Assembly (NCBI GenBank): GCA_028717405.1
Contig: JAQUNY010000001.1
Span: forward strand, 1-37,423
Direction of reading: 5' to 3'
DNA: 37,423 nucleotides
Source: Eubacteriales bacterium
GTDB lineage: Bacteria; Bacillota; Clostridia; JAQUNY01
This document shows positions 4,125 to 37,351 of the stretch, piece by piece. Position 1 is the first letter of the stretch. The number at the start of each line of letters is the position of its first letter. The notes beneath the pieces were generated by a model. That model saw nothing but the letters and a program-made list of their open reading frames with translations, was not told where the DNA came from and did not search any database. The translations under genes were made by a program, and so were the position numbers.

Positions 4125-4172
4125 AGTGTACTCCTTATATCCCGGCTGACGGACACAATGCTTCCTTCAAGT

Positions 4173-5324: not shown

Positions 5325-5380
5325 AAACTGCTCTTACTCTTAATATGCTTCATTTTTCCCCGCCAATATTTCCCCGGCAG

Positions 5381-7098: not shown

Positions 7099-7127
7099 AT
7101 TATACAAAACAGCAGATATGTTTACAA
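7099..7127 (-). promoter_or_regulatory. Candidate sigma-A promoter for the Gfo/LemA/TPM gene string
   Basis: On the minus strand, TTGTAA (7127..7122) is followed by a 17-nt spacer and TATAAT (7104..7099). This lies about 45 nt upstream of the ATG at 7051. The -35 element overlaps the recD2 stop codon. Confidence 0.4.
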
Positions 7128-9715: not shown

Positions 9716-9845
9716 TTTAATACCCTCCTGCCGCGTTGACTTTAAGCTGATTATACAACAATCATGGACTCTTTGCCATATTGCCGGTCTGAAATTATTT
9801 AAGAGTGATGTCAAAGCTCTGTCAGAGCGCTGTCAGGCAGATCTG

Positions 9846-19100: not shown

Positions 19101-19108
19101 TTACTGTA

Positions 19109-19828: not shown

Positions 19829-20140
19829 CTTTGTTTTCACCTGCCTCTTTCTTTAAGTACATTGGCTTTTTATCCCAGGCAACGCTCCCCAAACCCTGTA
19901 TATCTTTCAGATGCCCACATACCTTGTATTATATCGCACATGAAAAATCGATTCTACTCCGTGTACGGCTGCCGCTTTAAATAACTCAAATTCACAACTC
20001 TAACCGGCAGGTATAATCCGCTCAAATCAACTGTTTTCATTTTATTCCCACATTTTGTCGCTCATGTGTTATATATGTGAATAGGGTGTGACAGTGGATC
20101 CGCTTCTCTTTCTGCAGTTGTTTCAGCCATAACTGTGCTT

Positions 20141-20289: not shown

Positions 20290-21648
<1,359 letters not shown>

Positions 21649-21686
21649 TCATACAAGATAACGGTATATAAGGCCTGACCGAAGTA

Positions 21687-21834: not shown

Positions 21835-23400
21835 TCAAGCGTCTTTCCCATTATCTGCACCAAATGAGTCTCTTATTTCCGCTTCCATCTCCTCGTATTT
21901 ATCAAGCAGCTTTATGAAAGTTTCAACTACTTCTCCGTCAAATTGGGTTCCCTTATTACCCTTAAGCTGTTTCACTGATTCCTCAAGGCTCATCTTTGGC
22001 CTGTAACTTCTGTCTGAAGTCATTGCATCAAATGCATCTGAAACAGCCAGTATCCTGGCCATCAAAGGTATCCCGTCCCCTTTGAGATTATCTGGATACC
22101 CTTTTCCGTCAATTCTCTCATGATGGCTCCTGACAACGGGAACGACTTCCCTGAAAAGAGATGATGCCGCCAGTATCTGCGCGCTTCTCAGTGGATGCTT
22201 TCTCATCTCTTCAAATTCCTCTTCCTCCAGTGCAGACGGTTTGAGAAGGATATTATCTGATATGCTTATCTTACCTATATCATGAAAAATGCCGCTGATC
22301 CTGAGCGTTTCAACCTGATCTCCGTTTAAGCCCATTGCTTCCCCTATCCGGGCCGAATAGTACGAGACCCTGTCAGAATGGCCTCTGGTATATACATCCT
22401 TTGCACCTACTGCCTGGCGCAAAGCTTCTATCGTATCGATATAGCTTTTTTTAAGCTGATCATATGTTCTTTCTATTTCATCATTTTTTCTTCTTACCAG
22501 ATCGTGGAGACAAATATTGCTGACAGCTGCCGCAACCTGTTCTGCAAAAATCTCTAAAAGCCTCTCTGTTTCTTCATTTGTATCACACTCGGTGTATATT
22601 GATCCAATAAATCCTGAAAATCTGTCTTTAAGAGGAAGAAGCATACCACCGGCCATCTTTAAAGGCCTTCCGAAAATCCTGGCTTCTTCGATCCCCGCCA
22701 GCAATTCCCTGTCAAGAAGCATTCTGTAATCCTTCTCTTCGGGAATCTCTCCTGCAGCAAATTCTCCCGTCCCTTTGAAAATTGTTTTTTTGACTTCAGT
22801 CTGCCCTGAACTGTTTCCTCCGCAGCTGTCATTTTCTGTATTTATTTCTGCCAGTATAAAGGAATTTTCCCTGCCGATTATCCGATTCATTTCCCCGAGC
22901 ACATTCATAAGGGCAGTATTAAAATCATTCAGATGATAAATCCTCGGAACAGAGTCAATTATGCGTCCCAGCCCATCCTTGAAGCTTTTTATCGTTCTCA
23001 TCTGGGCAACCGATTTTATTCCGGATTCGATAAGCAATAAAAGCTGCTCAAATTTATCGCTTTTCTCGCAATAGCCCTGTATATCAAGAGCTTTGATTGT
23101 TTCAAGCGGCGGTGCTATATCCTTATGTCCTGTGAGGAGGAGTATGTAAATATCTTTGTCGAATTCCCTTATGCTTTCAACGACCTTGTCTCCGTGTATG
23201 GGATTCATAAGATAGTCCAGTATCAGTAAATCATAATGTTCTTCCCTTAATATTCCCAGGGCTTCCACAGGGTCGGTAAAACCAGCGCAGCCATACCCGC
23301 TGCGGTTAAGTATAACCGAAAGTGAATCTATTATGCCTTCCTCATCATCTACAACCATGATCCTGTATTTTGATGACAAGTCCACCCTTTTTCTTCTCAT
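21835..23400 (-). CDS. Response regulator with REC, GAF-like and HD-GYP domains (predicted c-di-GMP phosphodiesterase output)
   Basis: The receiver domain reads IMVVDDEEGI...LLILDYLMNP...LLLTGH. A central segment of about 170 aa has a GAF-like pattern. The C-terminal HD-GYP domain reads GHSDRV...HDIGKI...HHERIDGKGYP. I prefer the ATG at 23400, which has GAGG 7 nt upstream; a GTG at 23403 is also possible. Confidence 0.85.
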   Translation of the reverse strand: MRRKRVDLSSKYRIMVVDDEEGIIDSLSVILNRSGYGCAGFTDPVEALGILREEHYDLLILDYLMNPIHGDKVVESIREFDKDIYILLLTGHKDIAPPLETIKALDIQGYCEKSDKFEQLLLLIESGIKSVAQMRTIKSFKDGLGRIIDSVPRIYHLNDFNTALMNVLGEMNRIIGRENSFILAEINTENDSCGGNSSGQTEVKKTIFKGTGEFAAGEIPEEKDYRMLLDRELLAGIEEARIFGRPLKMAGGMLLPLKDRFSGFIGSIYTECDTNEETERLLEIFAEQVAAAVSNICLHDLVRRKNDEIERTYDQLKKSYIDTIEALRQAVGAKDVYTRGHSDRVSYYSARIGEAMGLNGDQVETLRISGIFHDIGKISISDNILLKPSALEEEEFEEMRKHPLRSAQILAASSLFREVVPVVRSHHERIDGKGYPDNLKGDGIPLMARILAVSDAFDAMTSDRSYRPKMSLEESVKQLKGNKGTQFDGEVVETFIKLLDKYEEMEAEIRDSFGADNGKDA

Positions 23401-23452: not shown

Positions 23453-25276
23453 TCAGATGGTTTCAGGAATCGATATGTAAAAAGTGGTCCCCTCTCCTTC
23501 TTTTGATTCGAACCACATATTCCCGCCGAATCTGCCTTTTACATTGGCATAGGATATATAAAGCCCCAGGCCGGTTCCTTCTTTCCCCTTGGTCGTTATC
23601 ATTTCCTTGAACAGTTTCGGCTTAATATCTTCCTTTATCCCCTCACCATAATCCTGTATGGTAAATACAATATTACTATTATCATCTTTTTTGATGTTTA
23701 AGTCAATATCGCCGCTGGAGCCTTTATATGCTTGTATGGCATTTATTATCAGATTATCAAAAACCTGTATCATATTGCTGATATCTCCATCCAGCTTGGT
23801 ACCCATATCGATTTCTGAACTTACATTCAGCCTGCAGTGATATTTATTCAGTTCGTGCTTCATCAGCAATTCGACTCTCTTTATAAGTTCGTCTAATGTA
23901 AAGCTGAATAGAAAGGGAGTATTGTATTGGACAGTCTGCCCCTTGACAGTAGTGATGATATCAGACATATAAGAACAGTGAGGCTTCATCTTTTCAAGCC
24001 AGCCGGCCATTTCTGAAGCAATTTCATGGTGATCATCCCCGGTCACCAGTTCGTCGTCAATAGACTCATCATATTCGGCAACAAGGTCCTTCAATGCCTC
24101 AATGCCCCCCGAAACCGACATTATAGGCGTCTTGAGGTTGTGTGCTATGCCGCCGACCAGCTGTCCCAGCGAAACCAGCCTCTCGTGTTCCATAAGTATG
24201 CTTTGTTTTTCCTTTATGGTCTGCAGGTCCTTTACACTCTGCGTGATATCTTTAAGCAGGATGATTGCGCCGAGATAATTTCTTCTGGAATATATCGACG
24301 TTACCTCTATCATAAAATATTTATCAAAAGATCCCTCTCTTATATGCCTCTCAAAGGTTTCTGCCTTACGCGACTTTCTGGCCTTTGTTATGAATTCGGA
24401 TAATTCGTCTCCGTTTATTCCCATTTTCAGTTTTACATCCAGCAAATCGGGGAAATAATCATTCCTTTTTATACGGTAAAAATACTCAAACATATCAGCA
24501 AAGGTCCTGTTAAAGTCGACAATCCTCATTTCTTCATTTAGTACTACAAAACTGTCCGATATAAGGTCAACAACATTTTTAAGGGCTATAGGCACTATAT
24601 TGAGAAAATTGAATTTCATAATAGCATAGGCGTACATCACCACTGCTATTGAAAATGCCACAGGTGTGGCATATGCATTCAGTTCAGCCAAATTGAAGGT
24701 GGCCATTACATTAACGATAAGCGGTATCATTGTTCCAATAATTATCAGAAGCGATTGCCTGGAAATAAGGCCTGAATTTTTAATTGAAGTCCTGATGAGA
24801 AAGAACAGACCTGTTATAAAACATCCGTAGGAATACACGGCATGCACCAGGAAATAATAACCCGGCATTGTCTCGCTGTTGTTAAGCGAATATTTAATAT
24901 AAAAAAGCCCGTGCAAATCGTTTGTCATGTATATTACGGCAGACAACGCCGGGATAATTAACAGTAATAAATATCTTTTTGTAAAAACGATCTTTGATCT
25001 GGCAAATATCAGTCCGAAAAGCAGCATGGCAAGAGGCGTAAAAATCAGTCCAATATGCGTGACCGACAGATAAAAATTGTACGTTTTCCATTCGAACAGA
25101 TCCGCATAGGTCTCCATCAACAAGCCTATATCCCAGAGTATCATAAAAAACAGATAGCTCAGGAAAACATAATGTATCTGCGACTTATTCCTCATTTTCA
25201 GTATGAACGCCATTATTGCGGCGACAAGCAGAAGTGAAATATGAAGCATTGTGAATGAAACTGCTATGTCAGTCAT
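23453..25276 (-). CDS. Sensor histidine kinase with an N-terminal multi-pass (7TM-type) membrane domain, PAS, HisKA and HATPase_c
   Basis: About 230 aa of consecutive hydrophobic helices are followed by a PAS-like segment. The H-box is LVGGIAHNLKTPIMSV, and the N/G boxes are NLIINAIQA, QDYGEGI and GTGLGLYIS. I prefer the ATG at 25276, which has GAAGGTGAG upstream and overlaps the NRPS stop by 8 nt. The ORF-track start at 25297 has no RBS. Confidence 0.85.
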   Translation of the reverse strand: MTDIAVSFTMLHISLLLVAAIMAFILKMRNKSQIHYVFLSYLFFMILWDIGLLMETYADLFEWKTYNFYLSVTHIGLIFTPLAMLLFGLIFARSKIVFTKRYLLLLIIPALSAVIYMTNDLHGLFYIKYSLNNSETMPGYYFLVHAVYSYGCFITGLFFLIRTSIKNSGLISRQSLLIIIGTMIPLIVNVMATFNLAELNAYATPVAFSIAVVMYAYAIMKFNFLNIVPIALKNVVDLISDSFVVLNEEMRIVDFNRTFADMFEYFYRIKRNDYFPDLLDVKLKMGINGDELSEFITKARKSRKAETFERHIREGSFDKYFMIEVTSIYSRRNYLGAIILLKDITQSVKDLQTIKEKQSILMEHERLVSLGQLVGGIAHNLKTPIMSVSGGIEALKDLVAEYDESIDDELVTGDDHHEIASEMAGWLEKMKPHCSYMSDIITTVKGQTVQYNTPFLFSFTLDELIKRVELLMKHELNKYHCRLNVSSEIDMGTKLDGDISNMIQVFDNLIINAIQAYKGSSGDIDLNIKKDDNSNIVFTIQDYGEGIKEDIKPKLFKEMITTKGKEGTGLGLYISYANVKGRFGGNMWFESKEGEGTTFYISIPETI

Positions 25277-28200
25277 TGCTCTCACCTTCTTCCCCATTTA
25301 TATAGCTTGTGATCATGGCTGAAAGATATCGGGCTTCCGGCTTATTCCATTCAAATCCGAGTTTTTTAAGGTATCTTACTGTTTTAAGTCTCTGCACCCT
25401 GACCGGCAGCCTGTCACCTTTTTCCTTAATATAATCCATTCTCTGTATTACTCCCTTCAGAATATCAGCATAAGAACCATCTTCAGACAATTTTCTGATA
25501 AGCGCATCATATTCCCCTGCATTCATTTTTTTGATTCCGGCCCCCATTTTGCGCATTGCCGCCGCTATGTCTTCCAGTCCCAGTGTGTCGCCTGCGATAT
25601 GATATGTCCTTCCACAGTTACATTTTCTGCATGCGATGAGCCATACTGCCCTGGCACACAAATCTACCGGTGTAAGATCAATTTTACTCTCTGTACCGGA
25701 CCCTGTTGTTCCCGGGCAATATGCGCCCAGTCTGTACATTGCGTATATCATATTCCGAAATGCATTCTGACCTGTATTTATCTGAAAACGTCCGTCCTCA
25801 TACCTTGGCGTAATATTGCCGACTCTGAGAACAGCTGCTTTCAATCCATCCTCCGCCATTTTGTTGAGGATCTTCTCAGCTTCATATTTACTTCTTATAT
25901 ACGGATTACTGATCTCCTGCCCGATATCAAGGCTGTTTTCAGAAAAGACAGGAGCCATGCCTGCCAGCTTGACCGGGTCATAAACTCCCGCAATACCCGT
26001 TGTCGAAATATGGTACAGACACGCTCCGGACGATTGGGCGGCAGCTGCTGCTGTGACAGCGCCTTCAATGTTCGTTTTTGTAAAAGCCTCTTTTCTGCCA
26101 TAATGGCTCACAAGAGCAGCACTGTTTATCACTGCATCGGTACCCTCAACCAATCCCAAATAATCGTTTTCCGGCAGGCCGAATTTTTCCAGAGAAATGT
26201 CACCCTCAACAGCAAATATCCTTTTTCCAAACAATTGATCATATTTATTTCCAAAATAGAATCTGATAATCCCGGCAAGCCTTTTATCCGGGCTCATGTC
26301 ACTGTGATGCCTGATTATACAATACACATCGGCGCCGGATTCTTCTGCGATCACTGCAAGTATGTGTGCTCCCAGAAAGCCTGTTGCTCCTGTGAGAATA
26401 ATTTTTTTCATCTTATCATTGTCTTCATGCATCCCGCCATTTTCTGTGCCGCCTCTGTAATCTTTTTTATTGTCAAAAGCCAGGTAGTGTTTACCGTTAT
26501 AAACGATCTCAGGGTTTTCATTCACTGAGCTGTCTACGGCAGTGTTTCTCTTTCCTGCAATAATTTTTTCAGCCAGCCTCCTGATCGTTTGATATCTGTA
26601 AAAATCCTGCGTATGCAAACCCCAATTATAAGGAAATGCCTTTATCTGTACTTGAAGTATTGCGAGCGAATCACCCCCGCGATCGAAGAAATTATCATCT
26701 ATCCCAATATTTTCTTTCATGTCGAGGACTTCTTTCCATATCGATGCGAGCTGTTCATGAACCTTGTTTTCAGGCGCACTGTAAACGGCTTCACTCTGAC
26801 TTTGAACAGGTACTGTAGAAAGGGCTGTTCTGTCAATTTTACCGCTGGGTGTCAGAGGCATTGAATCAATTTTTCCAAAATACCCCGGTATCATGTACTC
26901 AGGCAGCCTGTCCGAAAGAAATTCTCTCAATTCTGCTATGGATATTTCTTCAGTTGAAATATAAAAAGCGCAAAGGCTTTTTCTTCCCTGCTCATCCTCC
27001 TTAAGGACCACCGCGACTTCCTTTATCCTCTCATGCTCAGAAAGCCTGCTTTCTATTTCACCCGGTTCGATCCTGTACCCACGTATTTTTACCTGGTGGT
27101 CGATCCTCCCCATAAATTCAAGATTGCCGTCCGCACCCCATCTTGCTATATCTCCGGTTCTATACATTATCATCCCCGGAGAAAACCTGTCAGGCAGGAA
27201 TTTCTCCGCAGTAAGCTGCGGCTTACCTAAATATCCCTTCCCGACACATTCACCTGTTATGTAAATCTCGCCCCATACACCGATCGGAGACAATGAGCCG
27301 TTTTTGTTCAAAACGTACACACCTGAATTACAAACCGGTTTGCCTATCGGCGGTACGGAAGGAATGTCTTTCCCAGGGTCAACTGTATACATTGTGGCAA
27401 CATGCGTCTCGGAAGGTCCATAATGATTATGCAGAAAAATCCTTCTTTCCTTAAGGAATTTTTTTAAAGTATTGTTTATTATAAGCTGTTCCCCAGCAAC
27501 AATTATATGCTTCAGCGAAAGAGGCAGCCTTTCAATTACACTTCTGTCAGATGCCATCAGTTTGAGATACGACGGCGGTATAAACAGAACGCTGACTTGT
27601 TCTTTTCCCGCCAGGTCTGTAAGTCTGACAGGATTCCTCTTTATCTCCTCATCTGCTATAACCAGTCTGCCTCCCGCCAGTAAAGTACTGAATATTTCCT
27701 GATAGCAAACATCAAAGCTTATTGTAGTAAACTGAAGGACATTAGCGCGAAAATCAATATTTGAGGAACCATATTCGGTCCGGATCAGATTTATGATGCA
27801 GCGGTGCGGTATAATAACGCCTTTTGGCCTGCCTGTCGAGCCTGATGTATATATAATGTATAATGTGCTTTCAGGATCTGCATCATGAAAAGCCTGGCCG
27901 GCATTTGCATTATATAAGGCATTGCCGGGCATGGACCGATCTCCTGTCTCCCGCACAAAATCCAAATCATCAATCACATTGCAGTCCCCTGAAGCTCTTC
28001 TGATCCTTATTATCCTTCCATTATATCCGGGGGGCACTTCACCCTCTCCGTCCCGGCAGATAAGCAGCGACGCTCCACTGTCATGAAGCATGTAAGCGAT
28101 TCTTTCTTCCGGGTAGTCCGGATCAAGCGGCAGGAACGCAGCTCCGGTTTTTATAATTGCAATAAGACATGCGACAAAGGTCGGCGAACGCTTCATCATA

Positions 28201-31200
28201 ATGCCTGCAACAGTACCTGAAGCAGCACCTTCGGATGCGAATGTCCTGCCAAGTCTTTCAGATAGCCTGTCAAGATCAGAATAGGAAATACTTTCGCCTT
28301 CACAGGTAACGGCGGCTGCATCAGGATACCTGGCGGCGCATTCTGAAAATGCACTGTGAATGGTATTTAACATTTTCAGGCCATTATCATTGCATAAACC
28401 GAGGTTATTCAACTCGTTGGTAAGGTTTTTCTTTTCTTTTCCTGATAATATATCAATATCAGAAATATGTGTTTCAGGTTTTTTAAGAACTTCCTTTATG
28501 ATATTGATATAATGTGAAGCCATTCTCTCAATTGTTTCTTTATCAAAAAGGTCAGAACTGTATTCAAGATTGAATATAATTCCTTCTTCCTTCTCTGTTG
28601 CCTCAAGAAGCATGTCGAATTTACTTGTTTCATTAAAAGCCTTGTAAGGAGTGAGCCTCAGTTTTCCGCTTCCTGCAGGTTCTCTGACCACGTAGCTGGC
28701 ATTTTCGTTTTTCTGCAATACAAACATCACATCAAAAATCGGATTTCTGCTTGGATCTCTCCTGACCTTAAGCTTGACGACAAGCTCATCAAACTGGCAA
28801 TCCTGGTTTTCAAAGGCTTTCAAAGAATTATCTCTGACAGAATGCAGAAAATCAGAAAAGCTCATTCCCCCGGCAGGAAAATTTCTCATAACAAGAGTAT
28901 TGGCGAACATGCCAATTATACCATTGGTATCGGCATGCCTGCGCCCGGTGACCGGTGTGCCGACGAGGATATCCTCCTGTCCGCTGTAGAACGCAAGCAA
29001 TACATTGTATGCAGCCAGAAGAAACATATACAGTGTAGCCGAGTGCTCAGATGCAATTTTTTTCATACAGGCAGTAAGGCTTTCATCTGCATAAAAGCTG
29101 TAAGTACTCCCCCTGTAAGTCTTTATTGATGGCCTTGGCCTGTCTGCAGGTATCATCAGCACAGGGATCTCATCCGACAGAAGCTCAAGCCAATATTCTT
29201 CCTGCTTCTTCAGATATCCTGATTCAAAAAGCCTGTTTTGCCACTCGGCAAAGTCTTTATATTGCGCTTTGACACGGCTGAGATCCGCTCCTTCATAAGT
29301 CTGTACAAGCTCGCTCATAATAATTCCGGCAGACACTCCGTCCGAAATGATATGGTGCATATCAATAAAAAGATAGTGTTTATCCAAAGGCAGAGTTATA
29401 AGCACCGCCCTGAAGAGAGGGGCTTTATCAAGCCTGAATGGTTTCGAAAATGATGCTGCCGCAATTCTTGCGAACAACTTGGGCTCATCAGCATGCTTAA
29501 GGACACCGGTCGGCAGGGATTCCCATAAAACCTCCTCATAGTCAGCGTCAACTTTGTCTGTGATGATCTGCACCGGCCCGCTGTCAGTGTTCCTGAAGCA
29601 GGTTCTCAGCGCTTCATGCCTCTTGATAAGTTTTTCTATGGATTTTCTTAATCTCTGTTTATCAAGATTTCCTTCTATCTGCAATATTCCCGAAGTATTA
29701 TATGCAGTACCGGTATCTTGCTGTTCAGTTAAAAGATAGAGCCTTCTCTGAGCCGCGGAAAGTTTATAGGATTCCTTTACAGGAACCGGAGTTATCGGCT
29801 CAAAGATATTTCTGGCGGTTTTTTCAATCATTAATGCAAGCTTCTCAACAGTCGGGTTGTTATACACATCTGTAGTTGATATCTCAACATTAAAGACTTT
29901 ATGTACCATGGATACCAGATATACAACACTCAGCGAATCTCCTCCGGATTCAAAGAGGTCGTCGTCAATACCGGCTTCACTTATACGCAACATGCTCTTC
30001 CATATGTCGGACAGCAGGATTTCTGTATTTGTTGAGGGCGGGCGGTAAGGCTTAGTATCTGTTCTGATGTAAACAGGCTTGGGAAGCATCGTTTTGTCAG
30101 TTTTTCCGCTTGCATTCACCGGCATGCTGCTTATCTGAGTAAAATATGACGGTATCATATAATCCGGAAGGAACCTTGATAAAAACGATCTCAGATAAGC
30201 ATTGTCAAGCTGTCTTTCTGCAGTATAGTAGGCACACAGTGTCTTCTTCCCTTCGCTGTCCTCCATGTCTGTGACAAAAACAGACTGCATATGTTCAAGC
30301 TGCATGAGCCTGCTTTCTACCTCACCGGTCTCTATCCTGTACCCTCTGATTTTGATCTGTCGATCTGCCCTTCCCGAAAATCTGATTTCACCGTTTGAAG
30401 TCCATTTCCCCAAATCGCCTGTGCGGTATATCCTCCCTTTGCTTCTGAAAGGATCTTTCAGGAAATTATTTCCCGGATGAATACCGCTGTTAATATATCC
30501 TATAGCCGGAGCTTCTCCTCCTATATAAATCTCGCCCTCTACTCCCGGCGGTACAGGCTTCATATTATTGTCAAGAATATAAATAAAAATATTTGCTGAA
30601 GGTTTCCCGAGAGAAATATCCCAGGCATTTACAATTTCCTTGAGTGTAGCTCCTATAGTGGCTTCAGTCGGGCCATATGCGTTATAAATTTTTGCTCTTG
30701 TCATCCGCCTTACTTTGTCCAGAAATCCAGGCCCGAAATCCTCTCCGCCTATCACAATTTCCTTTAAAATGCCAAGACATTCAGAGCTTTTTTTGTCGCT
30801 TATAAACATTCCCAGCCTTGAGGGTGTGATATAAAGCTTGTCAACCCCATATCTGAGTATAAGCTCCGAGAGCTTCCAGGGTACTTTTTGGGCCTCGTCA
30901 TCCGCAATTATGACGGTCAGGCCTTTCAGAAGGGAAGGTATCAGTTCGAAAATAAAAACATCAAATGAAATTGAAGTTATGGATAGAATCTTTGCGCCTT
31001 TTTTAAACAGGAGGCGTTCCGCTATTCCATGCGAAAAATTCACAAGTGACCTGTGGCTTACCACAACTCCCTTCGGAGTGCCTGTCGACCCCGAGGTAAA
31101 GAGGACATAAGCCGGATCTTCAGCTTTGTGCTTTTTCTCCAATAAATGCAGGGGAATCAGGCCTGTTTTTTCCAGGCCTTCAGTTTCAACTATTTTATGT

Positions 31201-32945
31201 ATGCCTGGATCATAATACCCGCTGTTTTTAATACTGTTTCCCAGCCCTGCCTGAGCTGCAATTATCCTTGTCCCGCTCTCCCTGACCATTAATCCTGCCC
31301 TGGCATCAGGATAGCCTGGGTCAACAGGGAGAAATGAGCACCCCGCCTTGAGCACTCCCAGTATGATTACTGCCAGATCAACAGATCTTCCTGCTATGAT
31401 ACCTGCTGTTTCGCCCTTCCTGAGGCCGTTTTCCAAAAGCCGTTCCGCAAATAGTGAGGCTTTTATATCCAGCTCTCCATATGTCAGTGCGGCATCTTCC
31501 GAAATAACTGCAATCGCGTCAGGTGTCCTTGCCGCCTGTTCTTCAAAAAGACAGTCCACAGTTTTGTCAAGCCTGTATTTTTTCACAGTATTGTTGAAGT
31601 CAATGAGCACTGCATTTATTTCCTCATCACTCATTACCCTGAGTTCTGAAGCTTTTTTCCCGGGATCAGCAACGATATCTTCAAGTATAAATACGAGACG
31701 CCTGTGGATACCGTTTATGTCATCTTCAGTGAAAAGTCCCTTCATGCAGTCGTAATCGATCTCAATACTGCCGTCATTGTCTCTCTCATTCACATGTATA
31801 CAAAGCGGATCAGTCTGATTTCCATTGAAAAGCCACTCAGCCTCATATTCGCCGATCCTTTCAAACAGGTTAAGCCTGGCATTCTGGTATGACAGGACTA
31901 TTTCATATAAATTATGTGAAAACCTCTGTTTTTCTCTCAGCTCTCTGAGAAGTTTTTCATAAGGATACTGGTGGTGCCTTAGTATCCTCATCCAATCAGC
32001 TGCAAAGCCCCTGGCCAGCGATGTGAAATCCTTTTCACCATCGAAATTTATTCTGAATGGTATTGTACTTACAAACATACCGGAAACGTTTTTCTCTTTC
32101 CTGTTTATCCTGTTGAGCACAGGAGTCCCTATCACAAAATCACGGCTCCCATGGATCCTGCTTATATAGACTGAAACCGCTGCAAGGAACAGGATAAAAG
32201 GCGAAATGCCGTTGGACGAGCAGTATTCACCAAGTGAGCCTGCAAGAACAGGATCAAGCCTGTATGTCCTTCTTGTAGATTCAGTCCCTGTAAGATGAGA
32301 ATGCCTGTTTTCCTTCAGCACAGGTTCCGGTATTTTTTCAAAGCTTTTGATCCAGAAATCTCTGTCCGCAACGGGTCTTTCAGATGACAGATAATCGTTT
32401 TCGCGTTTTATAAATACATCATAGCCCGGAAACTCTTCTTCCGGGATCTCTTCTCCCGTTTTAAGACATGTGTAATACCTGACAACCCGGTTTGTAAGCG
32501 ACACCATAGTCCATGCATCACATATGAAATGATGCAGTTTAATATAAAATCCTCCGCCTGAGCCGGCGGTCCTGAAAACAGCAAAATAGTGAAGGCACGA
32601 ATCCGCAAGTACAAAGGGAGTCGCGGTCATTTGCCCTTGCCATCTTTCAAGCTCCTCCCCGTCATTTCTGCTAAAATCAAAATATTCTGTTTTTGCCGGA
32701 AGCCCATTGTAAAAATACTGATGAGGCTCTGTATCAGGATCGGATATCCTGATTGAAAGAGACCTGTCTCTCCGGAGGATAACGGCGATTGCTTCCATGA
32801 GCAATTCACAGTCACAATCATTTTTAATTTTAATTATAGCGGCGATGTTTCCGATCGATGTTCCCGAATAAAGCTTCTCGAGGTACCATATTCCCTTCTG
32901 CGGCTGAGTCAAAGGATATCTGCCAGAATTACCCGCCATTTGCAT
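25269..32945 (-). CDS. Bimodular non-ribosomal peptide synthetase: starter C - A - T - C - A - T - thioester reductase (R)
   Basis: Single intact 2558-aa ORF. All core NRPS motifs were located by eye (see the sub-features). There is no E, TE, Cy or MT domain. The second in-frame ATG at 32939 is better spaced from the RBS GGGGGA than the first ATG at 32945. Confidence 0.97.
   Translation of the reverse strand: [2558 protein letters not shown]
25326..26408 (-). other. NRPS terminal thioester reductase (R, SDR-type NAD(P)H-binding) domain, about aa 2180-2540
   Basis: The sequence [16 protein letters not shown] gives the Rossmann motif TGxxGxxG (aa 2185-2192). YIRSK gives YxxxK at aa 2349-2353. 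It is the final domain after T2, and no thioesterase is present. Confidence 0.85.
26556..26768 (-). other. NRPS domain T2 (peptidyl carrier protein), about aa 2060-2130
   Basis: [16 protein letters not shown] with the Ser at aa 2093. Confidence 0.9.
26820..28373 (-). other. NRPS domain A2 (adenylation, proline-like specificity code), about aa 1525-2042
   Basis: Motifs found: [29 protein letters not shown] (1699-1709), FDVCYQE (1744-1750), [48 protein letters not shown], and PSGK (K2036). The hand-aligned 10-residue code is DVQFIAHVAK. Confidence 0.85.
28446..29774 (-). other. NRPS domain C2 (condensation, LCL-like), about aa 1058-1500
   Basis: The N-terminal motif is [13 protein letters not shown] and the HHxxxDG motif is HHIISDG at aa 1197-1203. 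There is no preceding E domain. Confidence 0.85.
29811..30032 (-). other. NRPS domain T1 (peptidyl carrier protein), about aa 972-1045
   Basis: [14 protein letters not shown] with the phosphopantetheinyl Ser at aa 1004. Confidence 0.9.
30081..31568 (-). other. NRPS domain A1 (adenylation), about aa 460-955
   Basis: Motifs found: LTYGEL (aa 487), [23 protein letters not shown] (616-626), FDVFIFE (661-667), NAYGPTE (755-761), [16 protein letters not shown] (840-848), [20 protein letters not shown], and A10 NASGK (K948). Confidence 0.9.
31626..32921 (-). other. NRPS domain C1 (starter/lipoinitiation-type condensation domain), about aa 9-440
   Basis: The HHxxxD motif is HHFICD at aa 138-143. 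The N-terminus [25 protein letters not shown] resembles my recollection of the surfactin SrfAA starter C domain (YPLTDAQKRIWYTEKFYPHTSISN). This is the first domain of the protein, with no upstream T domain. Confidence 0.7.
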
Positions 32946-32989
32946 CCCCCTGAAAATTGTTGTACTTTCTTTTTAAACCCTTTCGATAC

Positions 32990-33018
32990 ATTTTATCATA
33001 ATATTTCCTTTTAGTTAA
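32990..33018 (-). promoter_or_regulatory. Candidate promoter immediately upstream of the NRPS gene
   Basis: On the minus strand, TTAACT (33018..33013) is followed by a 17-nt spacer and TAAAAT (32995..32990), with the extended -10 TGa. It lies in the AT-rich 138-nt gap between phoU and the NRPS. Confidence 0.45.
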
Positions 33019-33083
33019 CATATTTATTTATTTTTTTTGAAAAATTTAGTAATTTGAGGATGCGCTCTGAAAGTACTGTTCGA

Positions 33084-33806
33084 TCAGCTTTCGTGTTCTG
33101 TTAAGTTACCGTTTGTAGCTTGAAATTTCAGATGCTCCTGCGCCATACGCTCTTCGATTTCCTGGTTTTTATGCACGCCGGTCATTGAAAATTCGACCCA
33201 TTCAGCAATATTTGTAGCATGGTCGCCTATCCGTTCAAGGTATTTGGCTATCATCAGAAGGTCCATTGCCTGCCCCCCGTTATCAGCGTCATCATGTATC
33301 ATTTTTATCAGGTCGTTCTTAACTGTTAAGAATAGCCTATCAACAATATCATCCGCTTTGATGATTTCCCTGGCAAGCTCAAGATCCTTTTTAACATAGG
33401 CGCTGATACTTCCCTTTACCATCTTCACCGCCTCGCGAGCCATCTCCGGGATGGTTTCCAGCTTTTTTATGTAAATGCAATCCGACAGATATCCTGCTAT
33501 TTCAGATATATCCGCCGCCTGATCTCCTATTCTTTCCATATCCGTTATCATCTTCAACGCAGCTGAAATAAGGCGCAGATCCCTGGCAACCGGTTGCTGC
33601 TGCAAAAGCAGTTTCAGGCAGAGGGCTTCGATGTCCTGCTCCTTTCTGTCAATGACCATGTCAAATTCTATTACCTTGTTTGCCTTTGCAGCATCCTGTT
33701 CGATCAGCGCTTCCACCGCTCCCGTTATGGAATTTTCCACCAGTGTGCCCATCTGGATAAGCTCATCATTAAGCTGTTCAAGCTGTGAGTCAAACCGGCT
33801 CCTCAT
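33084..33806 (-). CDS. phoU: Phosphate signalling complex protein PhoU
   Basis: 240-aa ORF with two PhoU repeats carrying the E(D)xxxD-type motifs (DLRLISAALKMITDMERIGDQAADI and AKYLERIGDHATNIAEW). It is immediately downstream of pstB, with a 1-nt overlap. Confidence 0.93.
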   Translation of the reverse strand: MRSRFDSQLEQLNDELIQMGTLVENSITGAVEALIEQDAAKANKVIEFDMVIDRKEQDIEALCLKLLLQQQPVARDLRLISAALKMITDMERIGDQAADISEIAGYLSDCIYIKKLETIPEMAREAVKMVKGSISAYVKKDLELAREIIKADDIVDRLFLTVKNDLIKMIHDDADNGGQAMDLLMIAKYLERIGDHATNIAEWVEFSMTGVHKNQEIEERMAQEHLKFQATNGNLTEHES

Positions 33807-34588
33807 TATCCAAACCTCCCTGTTATGTAATCCTCTGTCCTCTTGTCTTCCGGAACAGAAAACAATTTTTCAGTTTCTCCCGCTTCAATTATTTCGCCAA
33901 GAAGAAAAAACGCCGTTTTGTCAGATATCCTCGCAGCCTGCTGCATATTGTGAGTAACAATAACAATGGTGTATTCCTTTTTTAATTCAAGGATAAGATC
34001 CTCTATTTTAGAAGTCGAAATAGGATCCAGCGCACTTGTTGGTTCATCCATGAGCAATATCTCGGGTTTTACAGCCAGTGCCCTGGCTATACAAAGCCTC
34101 TGTTGCTGGCCGCCTGAGAGGCTTAGCGCATTTCGGCGCAGACGGTCGCTGACTTCATCCCATATAGCTGCGCTCCGAAGAGACAACTCTACAATTTCAT
34201 CCAGCCTGACCCTGGATCTGATGCCATGTGTTCTCGGTCCATATGCTACATTATCATAAATACTCATCGGAAAAGGATTTGGTTTCTGAAAAACCATGCC
34301 TACACGCTGCCTCAGTATGTTCACATCAATATGTCCATGTATGTTTTCACCGTCTATTATTATTTTTCCCTCTGTCCTGCAGCCCTCGATCAGGTCGTTC
34401 ATTCTGTTTACAGCCCTAAGCAGGGTCGATTTGCCGCAGCCTGAAGGGCCTATAAATGCACTTATTTCGTTAGCCTTAAGCCCAATACTGACATTCTTTA
34501 TAGCTCTGAATTCTTTATAATATACATTAACATTTTCGATTATGATTTTATTAGTCTTATCAATATCATCAATATATGGATTTTTCAT
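33806..34588 (-). CDS. pstB: Phosphate ABC transporter ATP-binding protein PstB
   Basis: Walker [10 protein letters not shown], the signature [14 protein letters not shown] and Walker [13 protein letters not shown] are present. The C-terminal [10 protein letters not shown] is PstB-typical. Confidence 0.95.
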
Positions 34589-35523
34589 ATTTTAGCCGCC
34601 TTCTTTGCGATCACTGACGAGATCGTGTTGATAAATAGCACCAGCAGCAGAAGAACTACCGCTGTAGCAAAGGCTTCATTTGTATTAAAGCCTTCTCCTG
34701 ATAAAATATACATATGTACTGACAAGGTCCTGCCTGAATCCATCAGGAAATTACTTCCCGATGGTATCCCCGCTACCGTGCCGGCAGTATATATCAGCGC
34801 CGCAGTCTCGCCGGCAATGCGCCCCACTCCCAGTATAACCCCTGCAAGTATTCCCGGCACGGCAGAAGGAAGCACTATTTTAAAAACCGTTCTCAGCTTG
34901 CCCGCTCCCAAACCGAAACTTGCTTCCCTGTAACCGTCAGGCACTGACTTTAATGCCTCCTCTGCTGTCCTCATTATCAGAGGCAGGACCATAATTGCAA
35001 GGGTTGCGCTGCCGGCCAGTATGGAAAACCCCCATCCAAGATAAGCCACAAAAAACAGAAGGCCAAAGAGGCCGTATACAATCGACGGTATGCCGGAAAG
35101 AGTCTCAGAGGTAAGCCTGATCAGGGCTACCAAACGATTTCCCCTCCCTGCATACTCCACAAGGAAAACCGCGGCAAATACACCAAGCGGTACAGAAAGA
35201 ACAAGTGATACCAGGGTAATCACCAGAGTATTGATAATAGCCGGGAACATTGACACATTCTCCGATGAATAAACCGGTGAAAACAGAGAAAGCCTTAAAT
35301 GCGGGATCCCTTTTGCCAGAATATACCCAATGAGGAAAACAAGCATGCCAAATGATAACGAAGCTGAAATAATTACAAGGCTCTTAAGTGCAAGAGAACC
35401 CGGTTTGATGCGCGGCCTGCAGCAAACTATTCCTTCACCGCTGATTTCTCCTGATCCGGAAGGTACCGGGCAGGATTTGTTCCCGGATAATTTATTTATA
35501 ATTGATTTTACTTTACTTCTCAT
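34585..35523 (-). CDS. pstA: Phosphate ABC transporter permease PstA
   Basis: 312-aa polytopic membrane protein with the EAA-like loop ([31 protein letters not shown]). It is the second permease in the pstSCAB order and has 4-nt overlaps with both neighbours. Confidence 0.9.
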
Positions 35524-36419
35524 TCTGCAGCCTTTCTGCCAAGCATGTTAAATATGATGTTTATTGCAAGAATGAATATAAACAGGACCACTCCTGTCGC
35601 AATCAGGGCCCCTCTGTGCAGATCGGCGGCATATCCCATCTCAAGCACGATATTTGCCGTCATTGTTCTCACTCCTTTTAATATGCTTACAGGCATTCTG
35701 GCCTGATTGCCTGCAATCATTATCACAGCCATGGTTTCCCCGACAGCCCTTCCTGTTCCAAGCACGACTGAGGCCAGGATCCCCGACCTTGCCGCCGGGA
35801 GAACAGATGTAAAAACGGCACGTTCATGAGTCGCCCCAAGAGCAAGAGCTCCTTCATAATACTGTTCAGGTACCGCTTTCAGCGCCGCCTCACTAACTCC
35901 GGCTATTGTCGGTAATATCATGATCCCCAGAAGCAATGAAGCAGTCAATATACTGTAGCCATTTCCCCCGAAAATATTTCTGATAAAAGGTACAAGCACC
36001 ATCAGTCCGAAAAAGCCGTAAACCACCGAAGGAATACCGGCAAGCAGTTCCAATGCAGGTTTCAGGAAACCGTAAAATTTGCGCGGACAATAATGCGACA
36101 TAAAAACCGCAGTCAATAATCCAACCGGCACCCCCAGCAATATTGCGCCGGTGGTTACGGCAAGACTGCCGGCAATCATAGGCAGGATGCCGTATGACGC
36201 CGGGACATCTCCCGGCGCCCATAGCGTACCAGTCAGGAAATCTTTAATACCTATCTCATACATTGCCGGGAAACCGTTGATAAACAGAAATATACAAATA
36301 AGGAGCACCGATACTACCGACGCCGATGCGGCTACCATGAAAACCATTTTCATTATATTTTCAGAGGCCAGTCTTTTGGCTTCCCCGTCTTTGTCCGGTT
36401 TTTTCCTGTTTTCATCCAT
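35520..36419 (-). CDS. pstC: Phosphate ABC transporter permease PstC
   Basis: 299-aa polytopic membrane protein with the loop EAALKAVPEQYYEGALALGATHERAVFTSVLP. It is the first permease after pstS. Confidence 0.9.
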   Translation of the reverse strand: MDENRKKPDKDGEAKRLASENIMKMVFMVAASASVVSVLLICIFLFINGFPAMYEIGIKDFLTGTLWAPGDVPASYGILPMIAGSLAVTTGAILLGVPVGLLTAVFMSHYCPRKFYGFLKPALELLAGIPSVVYGFFGLMVLVPFIRNIFGGNGYSILTASLLLGIMILPTIAGVSEAALKAVPEQYYEGALALGATHERAVFTSVLPAARSGILASVVLGTGRAVGETMAVIMIAGNQARMPVSILKGVRTMTANIVLEMGYAADLHRGALIATGVVLFIFILAINIIFNMLGRKAAE

Positions 36420-36421
36420 AT

Positions 36422-37351
36422 TTATTTACTATTTACCTCATCCCAGCTTTCGATCTCTCCGATATAAATTTTTCTTACATCTGAGCTTTTCAGTCCATCC
36501 AGAGGATTTGAGTTGTTAACGATCACCGCTATCCCGTCAAGAGCTATTGCCAGAGGATCAAGCTCTTCAAGCTCGCTGGCCTTGAGCTCGCGGCTTGCCA
36601 TACCTATGTCGCATGTCCCATCCCTGGCTGCTGTCATTCCGGCTGTCGAATCACTGGTCTGTACCTCTATGACAGCACCGGTATTGACCACCCTGTAGGC
36701 TTCTACCAGTTTTTCCATTATAGGTGACACTGACGATGAACCTGCTATTACAAGTTTTCCTGAAGGCTTAGATCCGCTGTACATCTCCGCCGCATCATTC
36801 ACGGCAATATAGCCTTTAGCTACAACAGCCTGGCCTTCCCTGCTCATGACAAATGCGATAAAATCTTCAGCCAAAGCTGAAATGACCCCTTTCCTAACGG
36901 CTACATTAAACGGCCTCGCTACATTGTATGATTTATTTTTAATGTTTTCAACACTTGCTGCGGCGCCATCTATGGAAAGCGCTTTGACAGAGTCGTTTAG
37001 TGAACCCAGTGATATATAGCCGATCGAATATTTATCTCCGGCAACACCTGTAAGAACCACATCTGTTTTGTTAGCTATTATGGCTTCAACAGTTGTACGG
37101 TCTGTCTTTTTCCCGTCAGTGCCTTTTTCTTCTATCCCCATGAGTTCGATAAAAGCTCCCCTTGTTCCGGATCCGCCTTCACGCGATATCACATTAATCT
37201 GCCTTGAGCTGTCAAATGTGTCATTATCTGCACCCGGAGATGAGCACCCTGTAAGCGCCGTTAAGAAAATCACTGCCGCTGCTGCTGCAGCCAGTTTCTT
37301 TACTTTTTCCCCCATGGGAATTTCCTTTCTCATTTTAAACATATTAAACAT
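36422..37351 (-). CDS. pstS: Phosphate ABC transporter substrate-binding lipoprotein PstS
   Basis: It has a signal peptide with the lipobox LTGCSS. The PstS/PBP-like sequences GSGTRG..., GYISLG and IAGSSSVSP follow. Two starts are plausible, ATG 37351 (RBS AAGGGG) and ATG 37315 (RBS AAGGA). Confidence 0.9.
   Translation of the reverse strand: MFNMFKMRKEIPMGEKVKKLAAAAAAVIFLTALTGCSSPGADNDTFDSSRQINVISREGGSGTRGAFIELMGIEEKGTDGKKTDRTTVEAIIANKTDVVLTGVAGDKYSIGYISLGSLNDSVKALSIDGAAASVENIKNKSYNVARPFNVAVRKGVISALAEDFIAFVMSREGQAVVAKGYIAVNDAAEMYSGSKPSGKLVIAGSSSVSPIMEKLVEAYRVVNTGAVIEVQTSDSTAGMTAARDGTCDIGMASRELKASELEELDPLAIALDGIAVIVNNSNPLDGLKSSDVRKIYIGEIESWDEVNSK

Follow-up and report, generated by a model that had tools for sequence, protein, structure and literature searches.

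A conserved cassette of an NRPS, a 7TM sensor kinase, and an HD-GYP regulator in Clostridia, with a candidate signal synthase at its head

The window analysed here, i.e. the whole stretch of 37,423 nt, stems from the MAG of an "Eubacteriales bacterium"; further members of the family described below were found in MAGs from gut, digester, and sediment. Its central gene is an NRPS gene at 25269..32945, which encodes 2558 aa. An earlier note on this DNA had reported one uninterrupted 7.7 kb ORF with seven NRPS domains, which is confirmed by Pfam; the strand, absent from that note, is the minus strand, on which all features described in the following are located. The assignment is based on the single unbroken ORF, the Pfam/NCBIfam domains, and the positions of the motifs. 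Translation probably begins at the second ATG (32939), which would shorten the protein to 2556 aa. This start is likely because the sequence contains a GGGGG ribosome-binding site 6 nt upstream of it, and because the database entry, MDD5602470.1, also has a length of 2556 aa. Exact-sequence look-ups yielded no match for the window NRPS and a match for the window kinase.

The spacer between phoU and the NRPS gene has a length of 138 nt and contains a promoter-like site at 32990..33018 (TTAACT-17-TAAAAT, with a TG before it), which is a consensus match only, identified by a consensus scan and by reading the sequence. Rfam elements were not found in 32800-33300, and no intrinsic terminators or promoters within the cassette exceeded the shuffled background. 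A c-di-GMP riboswitch was considered as a feedback element of the NRPS and was rejected, as none is present within the window and the leader is too short.

Pfam assigned two Condensation, two AMP-binding (with AMP-binding_C), and two PP-binding domains to the NRPS, followed by a terminal NAD_binding_4/Epimerase reductase. The N-terminal condensation domain C1 (about aa 8-445, 31611..32924, boundaries approximate) is in the presumed position of an acyl-transferring starter and carries HHFICD at aa 138-143. It is followed by the adenylation domain A1 (about aa 466-955, 30081..31550, Pfam/NCBIfam, boundaries approximate) and the carrier domain T1 (aa 978-1038, 29832..30014), with GGDSL at aa 1001-1005. 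The second condensation domain, C2 (aa 1057-1509, 28419..29777), carries HHIISDG at aa 1197-1203 and is an LCL-like elongation domain, with a score of 361 bits against TycC (2jgp) vs. about 50 bits against starter C domains. The second module is completed by A2 (aa 1533-2036, 26838..28349) and T2 (about aa 2058-2128, 26562..26774, boundaries approximate), with GGDSL at aa 2090-2094, and the protein ends with the thioester reductase R (aa 2182 to about 2550, 25296..26402). All motifs quoted in the earlier note (HHFICD, HHIISDG, two GGDSL, TGATGFLG, and YxxxK) were recovered in the translation, and Pfam likewise revealed no epimerase, thioesterase, or cyclisation domain. Both A domains contain the core motifs and Lys517 (TIGR01733, 726 bits, cutoff 317), and the carrier serines Ser1004 and Ser2093 are invariant in the alignment of relatives. 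The same is true for the catalytic residues of the NRPS in the alignment with five relatives of the same architecture that are 40-45% identical. By motifs and profiles, the protein thus has the HHxxxD(G) C domains, A-domain motifs, and GGxS carriers of a modular thiotemplate NRPS, and it is a seven-domain C-A-T-C-A-T-R synthetase with all catalytic motifs intact.

The R domain is of the SDR type and has TGATGFLG at aa 2185-2192, Ser/Thr at 2314-2315 (IST(T)), and Y2349-x3-K2353. An alignment to solved reductases, which had been proposed as a check, places the Thr/Ser-Tyr-Lys residues at the positions of those in 6VTJ, MxaA-R, and AusA-R, and they are invariant among the five relatives. The best solved-structure match, 6VTJ (PCP-R of Mru_0351, E 3e-46), is archaeal. 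AusA is also bimodular and uses reductive release, but, unlike the window NRPS, it has no N-terminal C domain. The AusA equivalog model NF047350 reached 1335 bits, below its cutoff of 2500, with a match restricted to aa 433-2453, i.e. excluding C1; therefore, the window NRPS is not an AusA orthologue.

The 10-residue codes of the A domains were extracted cleanly, and the GrsA control was correct. In the pocket code of A1, DVFYVGAIGK, positions 301, 322, and 331 are occupied by small residues (Gly/Ala). The A2 code, DVQFIAHVAK, differs at one residue from what we take to be the canonical proline code (DVQFIAHVVK). The exact canonical code was not found in the literature searched (main text and supplements), which confirmed only V236/Q239, both present in A2, as the hallmark of proline-type A domains. 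The codes thus point to proline or a proline-like residue as the A2 substrate; the earlier note had not included a substrate prediction. Because A2 is of the proline type and the residue activated by A1 is taken as Xaa, the predicted product is an N-acyl-Xaa-prolinal or -prolinol, with a presumed acyl donor. Sequence and structure cannot yet predict the extent of reduction by R domains, i.e. two-electron reduction to an aldehyde vs. four-electron reduction to an alcohol.

The N-acyl group depends on C1. This domain is the first of the protein, with no carrier domain ahead of it and no partner NRPS in the window, and the C-first arrangement without a preceding carrier or partner is common to about 80 related loci. 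All 38 C1 domains of the family that were compared retain H139 and D143 of the HHxxxD motif. The N-terminal position and the intact HHxxxD are shared with the lipoinitiation starter C domains RzmA-Cs, CDA-C1, and SrfAA-Cs. When the single sequence was compared with solved structures, CDA-C1 (92 bits) and RzmA-Cs (89 bits) were the best matches, ahead of TycC (73 bits), and the surfactin starter C domain (8f7h, SrfAA-Cs) was a weak match (E 3.5e-8, 36 bits). In contrast, the profile of the 38 family C1 domains ranked TycC first (205 bits), followed by RzmA-Cs (173), SrfAA-Cs (151), and CDA-C1 (119), so that the ranking depends on the method, and C1 may belong to either the starter or the LCL clade. 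The TycC C domain is of the elongation type (LCL). Of the former view of C1, the intact N-terminal domain without a carrier ahead stands, whereas the likeness to the surfactin starter is weak.

An N-acylated product would fit a described class. For NRPS-R genes of gut Clostridia, N-acyl dipeptide aldehydes have been reported as products (Guo 2017 as cited in PMC8210680), and ruminopeptin, from the rup cluster of Ruminococcus bromii, is likewise reported to be an N-acylated dipeptide aldehyde (Schneider & Balskus 2018). The product class is thus not new. It has also been stated (Guo 2017 as cited in PMC8210680; ruminopeptin) that an N-acyl group prevents closure to a pyrazinone and makes the aldehyde more stable, so that this earlier argument is supported by the literature and is likewise not new. 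An N-acyl-Xaa-prolinal or -prolinol member of the NRPS-R family was not found in the accessible literature.

A different product would result if C1 did not N-acylate, either being inactive in cis or for want of a donor. A free Xaa-Pro aldehyde would then form a bicyclic (dihydro)pyrrolopyrazinone, as do AusA and the gut clusters with their pyrazinones. Free dipeptide aldehydes have been reported to cyclise spontaneously, and the similarity of the family profile to an ordinary elongation C domain would be in line with this possibility. In addition, genes for a PPTase, an acyl-activating ligase, an ACP, a thioesterase II, or an exporter were not found in the window; the second and third of these might have supplied an acyl donor. 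Pyrazinones such as DPO and AI-3 are known bacterial signals. However, RzmA-Cs takes acyl-CoA directly and, therefore, a dedicated donor gene is not required; RzmA and CDA, the best single-sequence structural matches of C1, are acyl-transferring. Furthermore, at loci with swapped downstream modules C1 itself is still 67-98% conserved, which, together with the invariant H139 and D143, argues for a maintained function of C1. We thus regard the loss of N-acylation as quite unlikely and retain the N-acylated product as the predicted one.

Immediately downstream of the NRPS gene, a sensor histidine kinase of 607 aa is encoded at 23453..25276, which contains HisKA_7TM, PAS, DHp (H-box GGIAHNLKTP), and HATPase_c according to a domain search, and independent gene calls gave the same length. 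The kinase ATG and the NRPS stop codon overlap by 8 nt. The catalytic motifs of the kinase are invariant in the alignment of relatives. Its 7TM sensor region (about aa 1-230, 24587..25276), delimited by domain search and family comparison, had no solved-structure match in a PDB search, and, used alone as a homologue query, it gave no matches at the database-scaled threshold.

The third gene, at 21835..23400, encodes a response regulator of 521 aa with the domains REC-DUF3369-HD-GYP ("RpfY"-type). The REC domain (Response_reg, E 4e-17) has invariant D19, D20, D63, T91, and K114, and the phospho-acceptor D63 as well as FHDIGK, HHERIDGKGYP, and R465-x-Y467-R468 (RxYR) are likewise invariant in the alignment of relatives. 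The HD-GYP domain aligns with PmGH (4mcw, E 1e-39), and RxY[K/R] is kept. It is a putative c-di-GMP phosphodiesterase; certain members of the HD-GYP family lack activity or have cGAMP as their substrate. A DNA-binding domain was not found in the regulator by domain search, and the kinase and regulator therefore do not simply control transcription of the NRPS gene.

The three genes form a conserved unit. In the five closest relatives of the same architecture (40-45% identical), the flanks are unrelated, and the NRPS is followed by a HisKA_7TM kinase and a REC-DUF3369-HD protein in that order, i.e. the order is found in 6/6 cases including the window. The description of the gene as a stand-alone bimodular C-A-T-C-A-T-R NRPS therefore holds for the architecture but not for the function, because the gene heads this conserved NRPS / 7TM kinase / REC-HD-GYP cassette. 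One further locus, L089, encodes a kinase that is 77% identical to that of the window; its contig ends inside the R domain, which places its A codes outside the comparison.

To a larger sample belong 80 loci that were found via the kinase in species-representative genomes of Clostridia, 74 of which have at least 2 kb of upstream sequence. In all of them (74/74), an NRPS gene is directly upstream of the kinase gene on the same strand. A REC-HD regulator is encoded within 1.5 kb in 59 of 70 loci and within 8 kb in 65 of 70; about 5/70 have no REC-HD gene nearby. The gaps between the NRPS and kinase genes are mostly -40 to +150 nt, with few larger values of up to about +350. The linkage spans NRPSs with one, two, and three modules that end with R or TE (C-A-T-TE, C-A-T-R, C-A-T-C-A-T-TE, C-A-T-C-A-T-R, and trimodular forms), all of which are C-first. 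Sporobacter termitidis DSM 10068 is a cultured carrier, with a cassette of the C-A-T-C-A-T-TE form (L053). In metagenomes, the kinase is represented by at least 6238 clusters, and species-representative genomes gave at least 594 gene matches. The cassette is widespread in Clostridia, and its three genes are probably co-transcribed. A published link between an NRPS, a kinase, and an HD-GYP protein was not found in the literature searched, with Guo 2017 and Schneider & Balskus 2018 outside its coverage.

Within the family, the identity of the sensor tracks the similarity of the A codes when the identities of kinase core, PAS, and C1 are controlled for (partial rho 0.29-0.32; 0/300 permutations). 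In the same partial-correlation test, the identities of PAS and kinase core did not track the A codes. Closely related pairs were defined by a PAS plus core identity of ≥0.75. The sensor identity is 0.73-1.0 for the 12 pairs with the same codes and 0.39-0.59 for the 10 pairs with different codes; the pairs are not phylogenetically independent and represent about seven and about five independent lineages, respectively.

Two pairs of loci exemplify this pattern. L004 and L005 have flanks that are 95.6% identical, and C1 (84-98%), kinase core (90-100%), and regulator (92-100%) are conserved as well, whereas the region from A1 to R (32-74%) and the sensor (38-58%) have diverged. In L047 and L066, a conserved A2 island (84-93%) is situated between a variable A1 block and a variable block of R and sensor, and of the two codes only that of A1 differs, with A2 being conserved in code and domain; the T2-R end has also diverged (54-66%). 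The synthetase specificity and the 7TM sensor thus change together, on a background of conserved kinase core and regulator.

The R domain shares the hypervariability of the sensor, with which it is contiguous on the DNA. Because the sensor abuts the 3' end of the NRPS gene, part of the joint replacement may stem from recombination tracts that span both neighbours. The joint variability could also indicate a physical coupling, in which the 7TM domain serves as a membrane anchor of the synthetase or as an exporter of its product and co-evolves with T2-R via protein-protein contacts, with the kinase reporting the activity or flux of the synthetase. The cassette encodes no exporter, and no characterised protein was found to be homologous to the 7TM domain, as this explanation would allow. 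However, the sensor identity tracks the A-pocket codes even when C1 identity is controlled for, and HisKA_7TM is a Pfam family of sensor-kinase N-termini, not of transporters. L047 and L066 also argue against coupling insofar as only the A1 code differs, yet their diverged T2-R end limits this point. Physical coupling appears improbable, about as much so as the missing N-acylation.

Because synthetase and sensor change together, the co-variation suggests that the small peptide product of the NRPS is a bacterial signal, beyond a protease inhibitor alone. The latter role has a considerable background. Few biosynthetic genes of the human microbiome are as prevalent as the NRPS-R clusters of gut Clostridia, and inhibition of host cathepsins is the leading proposed role. 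The family reportedly has the architecture (C)-A-T-C-A-T-R and makes dipeptide aldehydes and pyrazinones. The window NRPS has this architecture, also in Clostridia, and relatives that share it are present in gut MAGs from human, rabbit, and mouse, which makes the link to the family that had been drawn earlier a reasonable one. The family of Guo 2017 and the rup cluster share with the window NRPS the small size, the N-terminal C domain, the terminal R domain, and the predicted N-acylated dipeptide aldehyde, and cassette relatives are also present in human-gut MAGs. In contrast, the identity of the window NRPS to the relatives found does not exceed 45% (the nearest being uncharacterised), A2 is of the proline type, and the accessible papers, which do not include the primary ones, mention protease inhibition and no 7TM kinase or HD-GYP partner.

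The product could be a secreted N-acyl dipeptide aldehyde that inhibits proteases of the host or of competitors, with kinase and regulator being loosely linked and answering an unrelated cue. The intact R domain and the C-A-T-C-A-T-R architecture fit such a role, for which family and product class are documented, and published relatives have been assigned inhibition of host or microbe proteases. Peptidyl-prolinals are potent inhibitors of prolyl-oligopeptidase. Dipeptide aldehydes are reported to inhibit cathepsins, and N-acyl tails, as in ruminopeptin, to stabilise them. However, an unrelated cue would leave unexplained the adjacency of NRPS and kinase in 74/74 loci, the overlap of the genes, and the divergence of the sensor alone at differing A codes, with kinase core and regulator being 90-100% identical; in addition, the regulator has no domain with which to bind DNA. 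An inhibitor with an only loosely linked two-component system is therefore unlikely, in our view. One molecule could serve both roles, i.e. protease inhibition and signalling are compatible.

We consider it on balance probable, from domains, gene order, and co-diversification, that the cassette pairs a signal with its receptor in the manner of a pherotype locus and acts on c-di-GMP turnover, with the NRPS as the signal synthase. C1 would move an acyl group from acyl-CoA or acyl-ACP of primary metabolism onto the residue loaded by A1, C2 would link the acylated residue to the one that A2 has loaded (proline or similar), and R would free the N-acyl-Xaa-prolinal or, if it reduces twice, the corresponding alcohol. 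The putative receptor of this small lipophilic product would be the 7TM domain of the neighbouring kinase, embedded in the membrane; the kinase would govern phosphorylation of the regulator, and the HD-GYP domain of the latter would hydrolyse c-di-GMP. The product would thereby report producer or kin and reset c-di-GMP-dependent behaviour, as DSF does in rpfF-rpfC-rpfG, and synthetase and sensor would diversify jointly, as agr pherotypes do.

A wider generalisation is put forward more tentatively, with doubt slightly prevailing: the main role of small C-first NRPSs in Clostridia, those of the "dipeptide aldehyde" clusters from the human gut among them, may be that of pheromone synthases, each with its own co-evolving 7TM kinase that acts via an HD-GYP protein to lower c-di-GMP (the presumed sign of regulation), resulting in a widespread, pherotype-diversifying NRPS quorum or kin sensing of anaerobic Firmicutes. 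The pheromone would then be an N-acyl amino acid or peptide, as aldehyde, alcohol, or acid. If this were true, NRPS-R molecules would gain a bacterial receptor and a physiological read-out via the co-diversifying kinase and c-di-GMP turnover, and the open question of their role would be turned into testable ligand-receptor pairs, e.g. the natural allele swap of L004 and L005. Cell-cell signalling in Gram-positive bacteria would also be extended by a new chemical class, with N-acyl-Xaa-prolinal or -prolinol as the prediction for the window NRPS, and orthogonal signal-and-sensor parts would become available for the engineering of anaerobes.

For comparison, two known systems are considered. In agr (agrBDCA) of Firmicutes, hypervariable signal genes and a hypervariable sensor domain are flanked by a conserved kinase core and regulator. 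The cassette has the same arrangement of hypervariable signal-specifying genes and sensor next to conserved parts, but the agr signal is a ribosomal peptide and its regulator a LytTR transcription factor, vs. an NRPS product and an HD-GYP enzyme. In the Rpf/DSF system of Xanthomonas, the synthase (rpfF), the sensor kinase (rpfC), and the REC-HD-GYP regulator (rpfG) are encoded together. Rpf and the cassette have in common a signal synthase, a sensor kinase in the membrane, and a protein of the REC-HD-GYP type, with c-di-GMP turnover instead of DNA binding as the output, which for the cassette is predicted from the genes. Searches of Pfam, NCBIfam, and PDB revealed no RpfF/RpfC or AgrB/D/C domains in the kinase or the NRPS; by analogy, then, the likeness to Rpf and agr is one of circuit logic only. 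RpfF is of the enoyl-CoA hydratase type, in contrast to the NRPS, and RpfC is a hybrid kinase, in contrast to HisKA_7TM. The regulator of the window also differs from that of Rpf/DSF by an extra DUF3369 GAF-like linker, and the hosts of the cassette are Gram-positive anaerobes.

An open reading frame of 2558 aa was found on the minus strand at 25269-32945, where the earlier note had placed its NRPS. Its true start is likely the second ATG (32939), because a GGGGG ribosome-binding site lies 6 nt upstream and the corresponding database entry (MDD5602470.1, of a MAG labelled 'Eubacteriales bacterium') has 2556 aa. Pfam identified two Condensation, two AMP-binding(+C) and two PP-binding domains and a terminal NAD_binding_4/Epimerase-type reductase, but no epimerisation, thioesterase or cyclisation domain, as the earlier note had concluded, and the NCBIfam result was consistent with this. 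All motifs quoted in that note were found in the translation, i.e. HHFICD (aa 138-143), HHIISDG (aa 1197-1203), GGDSL (aa 1001-1005 and 2090-2094), TGATGFLG (aa 2185-2192) and Y2349-x3-K2353, and their residues are invariant in an alignment (A3) with the five nearest relatives of the same architecture. At its nucleotide-binding motif and at the Ser/Thr-Tyr-Lys positions, the R domain (25296-26402, minus strand) matches three solved NRPS reductases residue-for-residue. The best solved match, well ahead of bacterial R domains, is 6VTJ (E 3e-46), a PCP-R didomain belonging to Mru_0351 of Methanobrevibacter ruminantium, a methanogen of the rumen, and this archaeal match hints that NRPSs of this type were transferred between Clostridia and such methanogens. 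An orthologue of AusA was ruled out (NCBIfam 1335 bits versus a cutoff of 2500). Identity to the relatives found does not exceed 45%, and the protein forms a singleton cluster; judged by its sequence, it is in itself a new, divergent member of the known NRPS-R kind with a proline-type second module.

The ten specificity-conferring residues of the A domains were taken by alignment to GrsA-PheA, for which the expected control code was obtained (DAWTIAAICK), showing that the numbering was correct. The A1 code, DVFYVGAIGK, is of no recognised type. The A2 code, DVQFIAHVAK, is near-identical to DVQFIAHVVK, which we take to be the canonical proline code and which is present at A2 of four related loci in other genomes (L001, L002, L003 and L006). 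It also contains Val236 and Gln239, the hallmark of proline-activating A domains (present in 59 of the 71 that a recent survey covered). On these two grounds A2 is predicted to be proline-type, with proline analogues as further possible substrates. C2 scores 361 bits with TycC and about 50 bits with starter domains, which marks it as an ordinary LCL-like elongation domain.

C1 is N-terminal and has no preceding carrier domain, as had been noted before, but its claimed likeness to the surfactin Cs domain is weak: as a single sequence it scored 36 bits, versus 73 for TycC and, as the best matches, 92 and 89 for the acyl-transferring domains CDA-C1 and RzmA-Cs, the latter a lipoinitiation domain using acyl-CoA. 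A profile of 38 family C1 domains scored 205 bits with TycC, 173 with RzmA-Cs, 151 with SrfAA-Cs and 119 with CDA-C1, and the label "starter" is thus supported by position and conservation rather than by a place in the starter clade. The best chemical prediction for the product is N-acyl-Xaa-prolinal or -prolinol, in which the acylation, the acyl donor, residue 1 and the extent of reduction are all putative. If C1 did not acylate, a free Xaa-Pro aldehyde would be formed and be expected to cyclise to a pyrazinone-type product. The profile result, with TycC above the starter domains, would allow this, but we consider it improbable in view of the strong conservation of C1, which retains H139 and D143 in 38 of 38 aligned family members. 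Furthermore, C1 is 67-98% identical in pairs of loci with swapped A domains, R domain and sensor (L004 3788-5300 versus L005 10001-11500; L047 versus L066), which suggests that the acyl-donor side is held constant while the peptide part varies.

The product chemistry of the earlier note is sound, but not new, because the products of small NRPS-R genes in gut Clostridia are already known to include N-acylated dipeptide aldehydes. According to secondary sources, Guo et al. (2017) described dipeptide aldehydes that act as inhibitors of host proteases and to which an N-acyl tail can give stability. Another member of the class is ruminopeptin of Ruminococcus bromii, a dipeptide aldehyde with an N-acyl group.

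Functionally, and contrary to the earlier note, the NRPS does not stand alone, since two signalling genes follow directly downstream on the same strand. The first encodes a histidine kinase of 607 aa that begins with a HisKA_7TM domain; there is an overlap of 8 nt between the ATG of this gene and the stop codon of the NRPS (ATGACTGA), its ribosome-binding site is AGGTGA, and the gene call is matched by independent calls in three other samples. The second (21835-23400, minus strand) encodes a response regulator of 521 aa with the architecture REC-DUF3369-HD_5/HD, in which no DNA-binding domain was found. The organisation is operon-like. A consensus scan detected a promoter-like site, its -10 element extended, 45 nt upstream of the NRPS; no riboswitch was found there. 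Genes for a PPTase, an acyl-activating enzyme, an ACP, a type II thioesterase or an exporter were not found within the window.

Synteny is conserved: in all of the five nearest NRPS relatives (40-45% identical) the three genes recur in unchanged order, amid unrelated flanking genes, and their kinases and regulators are 51-57% identical to those of the window, the NRPS being less conserved. The H-box, N-box and G-boxes of the kinase and the REC aspartates, FHD[IV]GK, HHE..DG.GYP and RxYR of the regulator are invariant. The regulator belongs to the family that Galperin and Chou named RpfY; those members that have been characterised hydrolyse c-di-GMP, and specificity for this nucleotide is marked by the motif RxY[K/R]. 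The HD-GYP domain aligns with PmGH (E 1e-39); the 7TM sensor (aa 1-238) had no match among solved structures. In L001, the closest relative, a c-di-GMP-I riboswitch (21893-21977, minus strand, 85.6 bits) directly after the cassette precedes a stand-alone HD/HD_5 gene (21017-21661), showing that c-di-GMP signalling operates in that neighbourhood; the window contains no counterpart.

A kinase-profile scan of species-representative genomes yielded at least 594 matches, and the protein database contains at least 6238 kinase clusters at E ≤ 1e-30. The best 80 of the at least 594 matches are all from Clostridia or Bacillota; among their sources are gut MAGs of humans (Hadza, Nepal), rabbit and mouse, MAGs from digesters and sediments, and a cultured strain, Sporobacter termitidis DSM 10068. 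Among these 80, NRPS domains lie directly upstream of the kinase on the same strand in all of the 74 loci whose upstream sequence reaches 2 kb or more, with gaps mostly of -40 to +150 nt and a few of up to about +350. A REC-HD regulator is present within 1.5 kb of the kinase in 59 of 70 loci and within 8 kb in 65, the exceptions having unrelated genes in between; its form is REC-DUF3369-HD-GYP or a shorter, RpfG-like REC-HD-GYP. The partner NRPSs are C-A-T-TE, C-A-T-R, C-A-T-C-A-T-TE, C-A-T-C-A-T-R or trimodular, always with a C domain first, and their codes are Thr-, Ser-, Gly-, Val-, Lys- or Pro-like or of no recognised type. The C-A-T-C-A-T-TE cassette of S. termitidis (L053, 2967-13331; A1 DPWHFCMVEK, of no recognised type; A2 DFWNIGMVHK, Thr-type) is a possible experimental entry point.

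The sensor and the NRPS co-diversify. For 1033 locus pairs of equal module number, the partial Spearman correlation between 7TM identity and A-code similarity was 0.32 with kinase-core identity controlled, a value reached in 0 of 300 label permutations, and 0.29-0.30 with PAS and C1 identity controlled. The values were 0.07 for the PAS domain, which is as divergent as the 7TM region, and 0.02 for the core; for distant pairs only, they were 0.21 for 7TM versus 0.02 for PAS. In close pairs (kinases at least 75% identical over PAS and catalytic regions), sensor identity was 0.73-1.0 in the 12 pairs whose codes are the same or nearly so and 0.39-0.59 in the 10 pairs with different codes. The ranges do not overlap, and for at least seven same-code and at least five different-code independent lineages we calculate an exact two-sided p of about 0.003.

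In L004/L005 the flanking DNA is 95.6% identical, and C1 (84-98%), kinase core (90-100%) and regulator (92-100%) are conserved, whereas A1 to R, A2 included (32-74%), and the sensor (38-58%) vary. In L047/L066, C1 (67-89%), A2 (84-93%), kinase core (92-100%) and regulator (90-98%) are conserved, and A1-T1-C2 (32-54%), T2-R (54-66%) and sensor (32-58%) vary; the conserved A2 island lies between two variable stretches, which therefore do not form a single tract. Similar mosaics occur in L033/L072 and L051/L052. L035/L041, with the same codes, have no variable NRPS part (C1, A2, sensor, kinase core and regulator all ~90-98%). The 7TM domain could alternatively be a dock or exporter co-evolving with the T2-R end of the NRPS, with which the hypervariable R domain contiguous with the sensor would agree; the tracking of A-pocket codes by the sensor makes this very doubtful. 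The allele pairs resemble agr pherotype loci, in which a hypervariable unit, made up of the genes that specify the signal and the kinase's sensor half, has conserved parts on either side.

We slightly favour the reading of the cassette as a signal synthase with its cognate sensor kinase, feeding c-di-GMP turnover. The NRPS would make a small lipophilic N-acyl peptide (in the window, N-acyl-Xaa-prolinal or -prolinol), which the 7TM domain would sense as its ligand, either within the membrane or from the cell exterior; the kinase would then set the phosphorylation state of the regulator, with a putative sign of control, and c-di-GMP would be the probable nucleotide hydrolysed. The literature fits an NRPS product that is a protease inhibitor with an unrelated two-component system next to it, but this is unlikely, as it leaves the 74/74 adjacency (best 80 of at least 594 matches), the overlapping genes, the regulator without DNA binding and the sensor-specific co-diversification without explanation; protease inhibition may be true alongside signalling. 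The proposed signalling cassette has the same circuit logic as rpfF-rpfC-rpfG (DSF), but synthase and sensor are not homologous, and we rate it as a variant of synthase/sensor/HD-GYP circuits and pherotype loci. As far as sequences can tell, a C-first NRPS is hard-wired to a co-diversifying 7TM kinase and HD-GYP regulator in hundreds of Clostridia species (at least 594 kinase matches; adjacency counted in the best 80). No description of such a cassette was found in the searchable literature, a scope that excludes two primary papers on gut NRPS-R products.

Just upstream of the trimodular NRPS-kinase cassettes of L086, L087 and L088, a gene in divergent orientation encodes an HtrA-like Trypsin_2-PDZ serine protease (L086 4773-5882, L087 3899-5008, L088 4396-5526, all minus strand), and a protease beside a putative peptide-aldehyde synthase may be meaningful. 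Between kinase and regulator, L086 and L087 have a small reverse-strand HTH gene and L088 a small unannotated reverse-strand gene. In L089, whose kinase is 77% identical to that of the window and whose downstream gene order is the same, the regulator (2794-4422) is 86-92% identical in REC but 31-54% in the GAF-like DUF3369 linker, which is conserved in L004/L005.

In the window, pstSCAB-phoU (33084-37351, minus strand), upstream of the NRPS, and an OmpR-type regulator/HAMP-PAS kinase pair (17169-19840, minus strand) flank the cassette and a glutamate dehydrogenase gene (20290-21624), an arrangement that resembles a Pho-regulon neighbourhood interrupted by an insertion; no mobile-element genes were found in the window, and the GC content does not shift markedly around the cassette. 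The remainder contains housekeeping genes, including those at 4173-5971 and 7122-12437 (both minus strand), i.e. a LemA/TPM pair, a RecD2-like helicase, glyoxalase, ClpB, serS and sugar-related oxidoreductases. A Creatinase_N + Peptidase_M24 protein, similar to Xaa-Pro peptidases, is encoded at 2943-4124 (minus strand), and its occurrence about 21 kb from an NRPS with a proline-type second module is probably a coincidence.
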